The notes under the pieces were generated by a model, which saw only the letters and a list, made by a program, of their open reading frames with translations, did not search any database and was not told the DNA's origin. From positions 18,196 through 82,195 of the forward strand of contig DAGG01000013.1 of NCBI GenBank assembly GCA_002498125.1: a stretch of 64,000 nucleotides of DNA, in the 5' to 3' direction. Positions 52,279 through 54,953 of the stretch are shown here, piece after piece. A program made the translations under genes and the position numbers. Within the stretch, counting starts at the first letter, position 1, and each line of letters starts with the position of its first letter. This DNA comes from Candidatus Woesearchaeota archaeon UBA525 (lineage in GTDB: Archaea > Nanobdellota > Nanobdellia > Woesearchaeales > UBA525).

Positions 52279-52548
52279 ATGAGATACTTGCACCACGATC
52301 CGGCTTGCGCAGAAGACTCGTGCAACGTCGATGGAGAGCTGGAATTCAAGTACAAGGGCAGAGAGGTCATCGCCATCATCTACAGCGAACGCGGAAGCAA
52401 CAAGCCACGCGTCAATGTCCTCGGTTATGTCATGCAGAGAGAGGAGCACTCCACTGAGATCGAACGAGTCAGCACAGCTCCCGAGCGCAAGGACATCACG
52501 AAGAGACTCCGGTCCCGAGGTCTCGAGCAGGAGATAGATTTCTTGTGA
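52279..52548 (+). CDS. hypothetical protein (89 aa)
   Basis: ORF; overlaps the downstream methyltransferase by 4 nt. Confidence 0.3.
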   Translation: MRYLHHDPACAEDSCNVDGELEFKYKGREVIAIIYSERGSNKPRVNVLGYVMQREEHSTEIERVSTAPERKDITKRLRSRGLEQEIDFL

Positions 52549-53243
52549 TGCAGCGCCTCGCCGCCATCGTCGAACTCCTCAAGGAGTCGAACAAGCGTAT
52601 AGAGGATTCTAGGGAGGCAGAAGGCACGGGGTTCCTCTCGTTCGATCCAGAGCGGATCGCGCAGACAGTGCTTGAGTTGAGCGCAATCAGTCGGCCTCCC
52701 AGGAGCGTCCTCGACTTGGGCTGCGGAAACGGCCAATTCGCATTGCTCGCCGCGGCGGCAGGTTACCCGTCGTATGGCATCGAGATAGAGCCTCGCCTCA
52801 TCGATGAAGCAAGGCATCTCCACGAGATATGTGTTGAGCGCAATCTAATAGACAAGAATATCCCGTGCAGGTTCGTCGCCGGCGACATGATCCCATTCGA
52901 ATACCGCGAGCAGTACAGGAAGTTCCGGACCGAGCACAACGAGAACGAGGCCAGCATGCCAATATCCGAAGATACCTCCGACCCCTACAAGGAGTTAGGC
53001 ACAAGCATTCAGACAGCGGACATCATCTACTGCTGGTCGTGGCCAGGCCAATCGCGATTCCTCTACAATCTCCTCGAGGATATCGCGAAACCTGACTGCG
53101 TATTCATACTTCCCTCATATGAGCGTTATACGCAAGGAGAGCACATGAACGCTGCTTTCAAGGAAAGGAACCGCCTTGTGCTTACGCGTCTGGCAGAGGT
53201 CCAGGGCCAGACGAGCATCTTCATCGGTCGCCGCGCTCAGTAG
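52545..53243 (+). CDS. class I SAM-dependent methyltransferase
   Basis: VLDLGCGNGQFAL motif I and post-I acidic residue. Confidence 0.6.
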   Translation: MMQRLAAIVELLKESNKRIEDSREAEGTGFLSFDPERIAQTVLELSAISRPPRSVLDLGCGNGQFALLAAAAGYPSYGIEIEPRLIDEARHLHEICVERNLIDKNIPCRFVAGDMIPFEYREQYRKFRTEHNENEASMPISEDTSDPYKELGTSIQTADIIYCWSWPGQSRFLYNLLEDIAKPDCVFILPSYERYTQGEHMNAAFKERNRLVLTRLAEVQGQTSIFIGRRAQ

Positions 53244-53809
53244 CGAACTGTTACATCTCTCGGCGTTTTGCCGATGAGGTCCCACGTATAGATAACGGCA
53301 TCGAAGGGCTCGTATGAAGTGATTCGTACCCAGTCTGCAGGTACCCAGTCCCCTGCAGCGATTACCTGCCGATCTCCCGCGGCACGCTTGATGACTGCGG
53401 CAATGTTATTCTCCTCCCCGTTCCATGCTGTCGAGCAACTGTTCAGAAGTATGGTCGCATCAGGCGCAAGCTGGTTAAAAAAGCTGCGCAACTCCTCCAC
53501 GTCACTACGGTCAATGTAGCGCTTCTCGTCGCAATCGACTCCACAAGGATCATCAGGGCCGCCGAGCGCAATTGATGTCGGCGTGCCATGGCCTCCGATG
53601 ACGAGCAACTTCGCTCCCGCCACAGGCGTACGGTACAGCTCATCCTCTGTCCCTACCTCTGCCATATGCGTCAGGTAGTGCGACTCAATCTGACTGATCA
53701 GCTTTGATTGCGCTGCCCGCGAGAACGATCCAGAAGTATCATACACGGGCATCGTCATGACTGCTTTCGGCTGTGAGAGCGCTGCTGCGAGGATGAGTTC
53801 GAGAAGCAT
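53237..53809 (-). CDS. secreted small protein with His...Cys dyad arrangement (clan-CD caspase-like signature hhhhGGHG ... hhhhNSCS)
   Basis: Signal peptide; LLVIGGHGTP and ILLNSCSTAW motifs. Confidence 0.4.
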   Translation of the reverse strand: MLLELILAAALSQPKAVMTMPVYDTSGSFSRAAQSKLISQIESHYLTHMAEVGTEDELYRTPVAGAKLLVIGGHGTPTSIALGGPDDPCGVDCDEKRYIDRSDVEELRSFFNQLAPDATILLNSCSTAWNGEENNIAAVIKRAAGDRQVIAAGDWVPADWVRITSYEPFDAVIYTWDLIGKTPRDVTVRY

Positions 53810-53812
53810 GCG

Positions 53813-54430
53813 TTACTCCATGAATGTGTAGTCGATTTCCGGCATCGTTCCAGAAGGATACGATTTCCCTACGATGTTTTCGAGACGCACGGTCTTGCCA
53901 GGCATATGACCTCCGTCGATATCTACCTTGCTTGTTATCCGCAGGCGGAATGGGTATCGTGAGATATAATGCTCATTGACGTCGTTGAAGGACGAGGTAG
54001 ATGCGATGACCGTGCGTGTGCCTGCGATGCGCTTGAACTCAGCAGCGAAAGAACCAGGCCCTTTCGCCGTACTGCCGGACCGCAGGTAGATGGTCGCATC
54101 CTCAGGCATGTGCGAGATGGCTTCGCGGAGCGCCTCCATGTCGCCGAGATCGAGCTTACGCGCCTCTCCCTCGCCGGCGCTGAGCGTGATGCCATCGGGC
54201 GTGCCATGTCCTGATATCACGAGCGTATGAGGGCCGGTCCGCATCATCGCGTACACCTTATCCTCAGTATCGACCTCGTACATCCGCACACGGTGCGTCG
54301 ATGCGAGGTAGGTGTCTATCGCCTGTTTTGTCCCGGCGTTACGCGTGAACATCCCTGTATCATAGTTAGGATGGAGGATGACAGCCTGCGGCATAGCCGC
54401 GATAATCAGTGCCGCCACCCATTGGAGCAT
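53813..54430 (-). CDS. secreted paralogue of 53237..53809 with Cys replaced by Gly (likely inactive)
   Basis: Signal peptide; LVISGHGTP retained but IYLRSGSTA has Gly where the paralogue has Cys. Confidence 0.4.
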   Translation of the reverse strand: MLQWVAALIIAAMPQAVILHPNYDTGMFTRNAGTKQAIDTYLASTHRVRMYEVDTEDKVYAMMRTGPHTLVISGHGTPDGITLSAGEGEARKLDLGDMEALREAISHMPEDATIYLRSGSTAKGPGSFAAEFKRIAGTRTVIASTSSFNDVNEHYISRYPFRLRITSKVDIDGGHMPGKTVRLENIVGKSYPSGTMPEIDYTFME

Positions 54431-54526
54431 GCGCCTTCGCGCACAAGTCTGCTCTTAAGGCCTGCGGCATATTCCCGTTGAAAACAAGAGAAATGCTCCT
54501 CATATGAGGAAGCGAAAAAAATAGGA

Positions 54527-54575
54527 GGCGGCGGATTCAATCCGCGTTCCGGCATTCGGAATGCCTGGAATCCCG
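54527..54575. promoter_or_regulatory. two adjacent 15-bp perfect palindromes (GCGGATTcAATCCGC and GGCATTCgGAATGCC), candidate operator
   Basis: Each is a 7+1+7 inverted repeat, 5 nt apart, in a 520-bp divergent intergenic region. Confidence 0.4.
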
Positions 54576-54953
54576 TTAGGGATCATCCTGCCCGTAGTGG
54601 CAGCTCCGGGCGAGGAGCAAGAGATAGCGACGCCTAACAAAAGAGGGGTATGAAGCAGGACCTACTCGTCCTCTTCTATGAGGTCACCACTGCTGTTGAC
54701 CTTCCACTCGTTTGGCGTTGCCATAAGTAGGCGAGGGATTTTCTCCTTTATGAAGGTTGTGTCATCATACTTTTTCGTCTGAGAAATCCACCAAAAGTGC
54801 ATTTTTAGTCATAAGGAAAAGAACGTAAACGACCATATAGAAAATAAATAATTTATTGATGTATTTAAACAAATCGTAGTATTTAAAGAGAGGCACGTAT
54901 CCGCCAGAAGAATTCAAAACCGCAACCATGCTTGCGCTTCTGGAGGTATCACG

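Follow-up and report, generated by a model that had tools for sequence, protein, structure and literature searches.

The window analysed here, a stretch of 64,000 nucleotides from Candidatus Woesearchaeota archaeon UBA525 (GenBank assembly GCA_002498125.1, contig DAGG01000013.1, positions 18,196 to 82,195 of the forward strand), contains on its minus strand two adjacent genes for small proteins with a caspase-like arrangement of histidine and cysteine. Gene B (53813..54430), an open reading frame (ORF) of 205 aa, lies upstream in the direction of transcription, and gene A (53237..53809), an ORF of 190 aa, lies downstream. A is a candidate cysteine peptidase of clan CD, similar to the DUF4347 proteins, with His74 and Cys125 as its putative dyad, while B is a paralogue which keeps the histidine (His75), has glycine (Gly119) at the position of the nucleophile and is predicted to be inactive. 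The reading favoured here, which as a whole is regarded as probable, is that of an exported clan CD peptidase (A) and a co-expressed Cys-less paralogue (B), both from a divergent branch of DUF4347.

Organization of the gene pair

An original prediction, made from the letters of the window, had described the two ORFs as paralogous along a common motif string, and the ORF list and a BLASTP comparison agree with it: A and B are 41% identical over 150 residues (E 4e-24), with YDT, F.R.A..K, TED..Y, LVI.GHGTP..I.L and DATI.L.S[C/G]STA in common. The histidine and cysteine blocks of A read LVIGGH74G and ILLNSC125STA, the codons being CAT (53588..53590, minus strand) for His74 and TGC (53435..53437, minus strand) for Cys125. 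Those of B are LVISGH75G and IYLRSG119STA; its His75 codon, read from the sequence, is CAT (54206..54208, minus strand) and its Gly119 codon GGC (54074..54076, minus strand), which differs from TGC by one base. The whole B protein contains no cysteine. Thus, the glycine at the cysteine position and the retained histidine block stand as predicted, but the copy that carries the glycine, which had been taken for the downstream paralogue, is the upstream one in transcription, and the downstream gene is the one with the cysteine. An assembly or sequencing error behind Gly119 was rejected, since the 1,194-nt DNA of the pair is identical in two other assemblies, one from JGI (L001) and one from Logan (L002), the latter being independent.

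At the junction of the two genes (53810..53823, minus strand), the stop codon of B (TAA) is followed by a spacer of 3 nt (CGC) and by the ATG of A, with a GGAG sequence 6 nt before this ATG. Because of the short spacer and the GGAG, and because a site scan of the region found no terminator-like site between the genes, the layout indicates a two-gene operon with B upstream and coupled translation.

Predicted fold and structural matches

Structure models were obtained with AlphaFold2 from family alignments and compared to the PDB by Foldseek. The model of A has a predicted local distance difference test score (pLDDT) of 85.3 and a predicted template modelling score (pTM) of 0.85, and that of B 86.2 and 0.83, respectively. 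In both, the elements follow the order b1-helix-b2-helix-b3-GHG-helix-b4-S-C/G-helix-b5-beta-hairpins. GGH74G of A comes after the strand at residues 68-72 and SC125 after that at 119-123; in B, GH75G follows the strand at 69-73 and SG119 that at 113-117. The clan CD order of a histidine after strand 3 and then a cysteine after strand 4 is thus found in A, and with glycine in B. The sequence blocks of the clan (a hydrophobic strand with H-G and a hydrophobic strand with a small residue and C) are also present in A, B being without the cysteine. From these models, A and B are predicted with confidence to share the caspase/hemoglobinase fold of clan CD.

The top Foldseek match of A is Tce1 (9qpe_G, E 6.2e-4, template modelling (TM) scores 0.54/0.57), followed by E-value by the Craspase CHAT protease, MALT1, the MARTX cysteine protease domain, caspase-9 and gingipain R (TM 0.51); the MARTX/C80-type structures 3gcd, 3eeb and 8yjc are among its matches. 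For B, the list is headed by CED-3 (E 1.2e-4) and Tce1 (E 1.6e-4, TM 0.50/0.56), and consists mainly of clan CD proteins, including caspases 3, 4, 6, 7 and 11, Csx29, legumain, PIGK and gingipain. Both proteins are therefore structurally similar to 9qpe_G, which represents DUF4347.

Tce1 and its paralogue Tce2 are DUF4347 proteins recently described as toxin-type (C80-like) cysteine proteases: His186 and Cys240 of Tce1 form a proposed catalytic dyad which has been superposed on that of the TcdB protease domain, and the toxicity of the 190-aa Tce2 in yeast needs the predicted active site (PMC13323088). The assignment of PA0256 to DUF4347 had been reported as well (PMC8262886). When the wide profile of the family was aligned with Tce1, its GHG histidine fell on chain residue 77 (His186) and its SC cysteine on chain residue 131 (Cys240), so that His74 and Cys125 of A align onto the proposed dyad. 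The proximity of these two residues in A would follow from the topology together with this alignment. The proposal that the hhhhGGHG and hhhhNSCS blocks correspond to the His and Cys of clan CD, and the check by Foldseek on AlphaFold models that accompanied it, were in this way borne out for fold and motifs.

It is very improbable that the caspase likeness is a coincidence, i.e. that these are generic flavodoxin- or Rossmann-like folds in which a non-catalytic His and Cys bind, for example, a metal or a cofactor. Among the matches of A, domains of UDP-glucose dehydrogenase, flavodoxin and aminotransferase do appear at similar E-values; yet the list of B is dominated by clan CD proteases, the sequence matches of the relatives (DUF4347, CHAT, C14 and C25) are all to caspase-fold families, and His and Cys occupy the canonical places after strands 3 and 4, in register with the Tce1 dyad.

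Relation to DUF4347 and other families

The placement of the family depends to a large extent on its relatives. Among the 33 members of the wide alignment, 17 match DUF4347 at E<=0.01, while isolated members give weak matches to CHAT, Peptidase_C14 (one, E 4e-4) and Peptidase_C25. Nine of ten multi-domain relatives match DUF4347 (PF14252), two of them above its cut-off (P0037 with 30.1 bits and P0052 with 25.2 bits), and one relative has already been named 'DUF4347 domain-containing protein' by NCBI. Hence, the original statement that no family name could be assigned, and the suggestion that the proteins might be undescribed, are not supported. Nor does size set them apart, as had been suggested when they were called smaller than known caspase-fold proteases: the chains of MARTX protease domains have 201-210 residues, the resolved Tce1 domain about 200 and Tce2 190 aa.

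Matches to the peptidase families themselves were not obtained: A and B do not match Peptidase_C80 at E<=10, the 33 relatives do not match it at E<=0.01, and the Pfam scan gave no match to Peptidase_C14 for A or B. With the narrow family profile, a search of the PDB gave no match. On sequence grounds, the A/B family is best described as a divergent branch of DUF4347, with A and B as outliers whose relation to it is at the superfamily level. Since the family is an outlier of DUF4347, it is not a new fold or clan and belongs to a known superfamily.

As a separate observation, residues 52-136 of B gave a weak match (E 0.16) to positions 313-398 of the NCBIfam model NF012197, 'lonely Cys domain', over the region from His to Cys, which hints that this uncharacterised domain, too, could be a His/Cys module of the caspase fold.

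Homologues and conservation of the dyad

The small homologues of A number 17, with 175-209 aa and 36-44% identity. An exhaustive profile search gave a far larger family, with 647 cluster representatives at E<=1e-3, of which 115 also reach E<=1e-10. In most of these matches the domain is C-terminal in proteins of 250-800 aa, which start with signal peptides or membrane anchors; the long relatives that carry an organism name are from Candidatus Woesearchaeota. A word-indexed homology search with B returned nothing besides B itself, and two scans of metagenome contigs, with an A-type and with a B-type alignment, gave no matches.

The strongest argument for a functional dyad comes from the alignment of 126 full-length domains, where both His and Cys are present in 125 (125/126 in each case), and the sole domain without Cys is B. 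Because of this conservation, and because B is the lone Cys-less member, the dyad of the family is likely to be functional, and B to be catalytically dead as a thiol enzyme. B also keeps the fold (pLDDT 86) and the clan CD structural matches, with Gly119 in the Cys column, and is thus, by sequence and model, a credible pseudo-enzyme, as had been predicted.

Outside the archaea, a scan of species-representative genomes, which did not recover the window's own genome, found 26 loci, all in metagenome-assembled genomes of Acidobacteriota/Thermoanaerobaculia and all with a single copy. Among small stand-alone homologues, those encoded by these loci (L003-L028) come closest to the archaeal A-type; they are single-copy secreted proteins of soil Acidobacteriota. 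The neighbourhoods of the loci show lineage synteny only: in 13 a sensor kinase follows downstream, and in 10 a large PHP-like protein is encoded upstream. Neighbourhood clustering found neither a second copy nor an evident partner gene in any of the 26.

The archaeal A-type proteins have in common an insert, C-x3-C-D-E-[KR]-x-Y-[IV]-D, in the low-confidence loop that follows the His (residues 89-93 in A; also in P0025 and P0027). In A, where the alignments place it as C89-x3-C93 (PCGVDCDEKRYID, 53533..53547, minus strand), the loop has a pLDDT of 64-65. The insert is absent from the B-type and Acidobacteriota proteins; a disulfide or a metal site are possible roles for it.

In the Woesearchaeota fusions (P0029-P0067 and others, e.g. 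P0031, P0052 and residues 60-330 of P0037), the part before the domain is built of arrays of repeats of about 36 residues (...IKDxxG...F....EYAKxL...), for which no Pfam family was matched. A conserved segment, F-x-D-T-x-K-P-N-A, links repeats and domain in these fusions and resembles the start of a repeat. Furthermore, a Fic-domain gene lies near one of the multi-domain family members (L032 3043-3960), and another lies beside an HATPase_c_2 gene in a related Woesearchaeota contig (L033 1293-2584).

The architecture of the fusions bears on an explanation which is considered quite unlikely, namely that the His-Cys chemistry is that of a transpeptidase or ligase (as in GPI8, the legumain ligases or PorU) or a single-turnover self-processing, the stand-alone forms being remnants of C-terminal processing domains. 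The C-terminal position of the domain on long, signal-bearing repeat proteins recalls the self-cleaving domains of MARTX and TcdB, the conserved segment stands immediately before the domain, and PIGK and the legumain ligase are among the structural matches of B. A and B, in contrast, carry nothing attached that could be processed, and no cleavage or ligation site is identifiable. Moreover, A is acidic by overall composition (isoelectric point (pI) 4.6, with 15 K+R versus 25 D+E; B has a pI of 6.2), which speaks against a basic cleft and sets it apart from the basic protease domains that bind inositol hexakisphosphate (InsP6). Because A is acidic and does not match Peptidase_C80, an activation of the InsP6 type, as in toxin protease domains, is also unlikely. 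A thiol peptidase continues to be the preferred assignment for A.

Genomic context

The pair is surrounded by archaeal housekeeping genes, which encode the ribosomal proteins S27ae and S24e, Spt4, RpoE', aIF2-gamma, FtsZ and DNA ligase as well as a superoxide dismutase of the Fe/Mn type (SOD) and a methyltransferase of class I. In aIF2-gamma, the identity to relatives named as Woesearchaeota is 65-73%, others of similar identity being named Nanoarchaeota or Nanoarchaeia, which makes the host a DPANN archaeon.

The original prediction had called for a check of co-occurrence of the pair in other archaea, and the outcome was mixed. In a contig of a related organism from a farmland metagenome (L029), the slot between the SOD and methyltransferase genes is likewise occupied by two family members in tandem, in reversed gene order relative to the window: an A-type (P0025) and a B-type (P0028) protein, which both keep the Cys. 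In a third contig, a lone A-type gene (P0027) stands beside the methyltransferase. On the other hand, the family is absent from the slot, and from the rest of the contig, in three closer relatives whose aIF2-gamma is 80-82% identical. The flanking housekeeping genes of L029 and the window are 60-92% identical (RpoE' 92%, VIT1 78%, SOD 74%), whereas the proteins of the pair are far less alike, with 41% between A and P0025 and 31% between B and P0028.

The locus is a variable, fast-evolving accessory slot among related Woesearchaeota. Between SOD and methyltransferase, at 53244-54953 in the window, it holds the pair in the window and in L029, an extra MTS-type methyltransferase in L033 and nothing in L034; in L035, where SOD is missing, an unrelated ORF of 147 aa stands before the methyltransferase. 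The convergent methyltransferase gene of the window (52545-53243, plus strand) overlaps the 3' end of A by 7 nt (53237-53243). A functional link between the two is improbable, since the methyltransferase stands at this position in all relatives, with or without the pair.

Between B and the divergent SOD gene there is an intergenic region of 520 nt (54431-54953) of lower GC content (about 0.48). It contains two short perfect hairpins, ggcattccgaatgcc and gcggattgaatccgc, followed by a T-run, near 54520-54575, as well as the palindrome cctcatatgagg and an ORF of 46 aa called by JGI at 54662-54802. Rfam gave no match in this region and, over the window, only four tRNAs, none of them near the pair.

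Origin of the two subtypes and loss of cysteine in B

In a neighbour-joining tree, A clusters with P0025 and P0027, adjacent to the Acidobacteriota proteins, and B with P0028. A recent tandem duplication giving rise to A and B was rejected on this basis. The grouping points instead to two old subtypes, with the loss of Cys in B being specific to its lineage. The position of the Acidobacteriota proteins suggests gene transfer between archaea and bacteria, in either direction.

The Cys-less form is unique to this genome, which speaks for a recent loss. One possible, if doubtful, explanation is that A works alone as a peptidase and that B is a decaying or neutral relic, whose Cys loss was a loss of function and which has no role as a partner. 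The inactive form is indeed not conserved, B being alone among the 126 domains and its nearest relative P0028 retaining the Cys; B has also diverged more from P0028 (31%) than A from its orthologue (41%), and the three relatives mentioned above do without the pair at the same locus. Against this, B has an intact ORF of 205 codons with a confidently predicted fold, the remaining motifs of the family all kept (GHG, DATI, R139, V141 and P160) and a tight coupling to A through the 3-nt spacer. The undamaged reading frame, the conserved motifs and the coupled translation speak for a retained function of B.

N-terminal signals and export

Both proteins begin with a hydrophobic segment, MLLELILAAALSQPKA in A (53762..53809, minus strand) and MLQWVAALIIAAMPQA in B (54383..54430, minus strand), which are putative short export signals; in the models they form helices at residues 2-11 of A, outside the domain, and 2-12 of B. 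The start of B cannot lie further upstream, since an in-frame TAA is found 8 codons before its ATG with no start codon in between. The original assertion that both proteins have signal peptides stands as far as short hydrophobic N-termini are concerned, but these have no basic n-region, and the Ala most obviously suited for cleavage has Pro at its -3 position. Taken alone, the signals are plausible but weak.

The homologues add to this picture, with canonical signal peptides in the bacterial proteins and a lipobox-like LSC at the N-terminus of P0028. These features, together with the signals and anchors of the Woesearchaeota fusions and the CxxxC of the A-type proteins, argue for an extracytoplasmic location, and export of A and B is considered rather probable.

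A cytoplasmic or membrane-associated location with uncleaved N-termini, and an intracellular role such as regulated proteolysis or defence in the manner of metacaspases or CHAT proteases, appears unlikely. In its favour, the hydrophobic stretch covers only about 10-12 residues without any basic one, the Ala site has Pro at -3, and AlphaFold2 gives the N-terminal segments a fairly high confidence (81-85). Against this, the Acidobacteriota and Woesearchaeota homologues have clear signal peptides, a lipobox or anchors, the A-type proteins have paired cysteines in CxxxC, a search for PADLOC defence families gave no match, and the neighbours of the pair include no defence-type genes.

Proposed function

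From the predicted fold, the conserved dyad and the signals of the homologues, A and B would be minimal single-domain proteins of about 170-190 residues, probably exported. A would most likely be a thiol peptidase, with His74 as general base and Cys125 as nucleophile at the C-terminal ends of the adjacent strands 3 and 4, and might act outside the cell on surface proteins of the archaeon itself or of a host. B would represent a different, older subtype which has kept the fold, the His and the other motifs, and whose Gly at the nucleophile position would not allow thiol catalysis; it may be a pseudo-protease that binds the substrate or regulates A, or it may have lost its function.

Several points weigh against the favoured reading of an exported peptidase with a Cys-less partner in a divergent DUF4347 branch. 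With respect to family, A reaches only 11.6 bits (E 0.24) against DUF4347 (PF14252), below the gathering cut-off of 24.6, the Pfam scan gave no match of B to it, and neither protein exceeds any curated family threshold in the Pfam and NCBIfam scans. With respect to structure, the wide profile finds its best PDB match, Tce1, with no more than marginal significance (E 0.11), the E-values given by Foldseek lie in a modest range (1e-4 to 1e-2), and three-layer alpha/beta folds of other kinds, UDP-glucose dehydrogenase and flavodoxin among them, occur in between the matches of A. As regards export, both N-terminal signals are short and have no basic n-region. Finally, B is known from one sequence only, and the pair must be dispensable, since it is missing at the same locus in three closely related genomes. 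Moreover, to our knowledge, proteolysis by Tce1 and Tce2 has not been demonstrated biochemically, nor have their substrates.

A wider scenario can be drawn, which taken jointly is improbable. In it, Woesearchaeota would have expanded an exported protease module of the DUF4347/toxin type, which by C-terminal self-processing would release the arrays of repeats of about 36 residues, as an archaeal counterpart of the autoprocessing of MARTX and TcdB; A and B would be a secreted heterodimer of protease and pseudo-protease, remodelling surface proteins of the host or of the cell itself in symbiosis; and it is from these archaea that the Acidobacteriota would have obtained their homologues.

DPANN archaea need physical contact with host cells, and Woesearchaeota are episymbiotic members of this group. 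We know of very few exported DPANN enzymes with an assigned function. In this setting, two 'hypothetical proteins', and with them several hundred relatives from Woesearchaeota, are placed here in the superfamily of caspase-fold cysteine proteases, which provides a concrete candidate for surface- or host-directed proteolysis in DPANN archaea. The active/Cys-less pair is a natural experiment on the formation of pseudo-enzymes, but as one genome alone shows it, its significance is for now limited. Both the expansion in DPANN archaea and the active/inactive pair are noteworthy, if unsurprising to specialists, and open no long-standing question.

Comparison with known systems

The clan CD fold and the order of the dyad are common to A and B and to a wide range of proteins, including CHAT/Csx29 (TPR-CHAT, Craspase), MALT1, gingipain R, legumain and GPI8. 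These differ from the pair in being much larger or multi-domain, and in sequence they show no significant similarity to A and B.

For the combination of an active enzyme and a fold-keeping paralogue without the catalytic Cys, encoded side by side, caspase-8 and cFLIP are the obvious analogy, and they offer a model in which B might act as a heterodimerising regulator. The analogy has its limits, since the dimerisation and linker cleavage typical of caspases are not predicted for A and B and, in contrast to cFLIP, the Cys loss is not conserved in the B-type lineage, P0028 having retained the residue.

The protease domains of MARTX and TcdA/TcdB (MEROPS C80, clan CD) are closer in build. They have in common with A and B a caspase fold of about 200 residues, the His/Cys dyad and C-terminal beta-hairpins. 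Like the C80 domains, relatives of the pair occur fused to large exported proteins. C80 domains, however, are internal, have a basic cleft through which InsP6 activates them and cut their own chain after Leu, whereas A is acidic, stand-alone and archaeal and has no match to Peptidase_C80.

The closest known counterparts are Tce1 (PA0256) and Tce2 (PA2372) of the H3 type VI secretion system (T6SS) of Pseudomonas aeruginosa. They are bacterial proteins without a Sec signal, delivered inside the Hcp rings of the secretion system, whereas A and B are archaeal, have hydrophobic N-termini and are only about 14% identical to Tce1. A role of the pair as T6SS effectors was rejected, given the archaeal host and the lack of a T6SS context. 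Nevertheless, Tce1 and Tce2 are likewise small single-domain His/Cys proteins with the fold of A and B, Tce2 has the size of A (190 aa), and Tce1 is the best (A) or second-best (B) structural match and the best PDB match of the family profile. The Tce/DUF4347 type of protease is thereby extended from bacterial T6SS effectors to the archaea.

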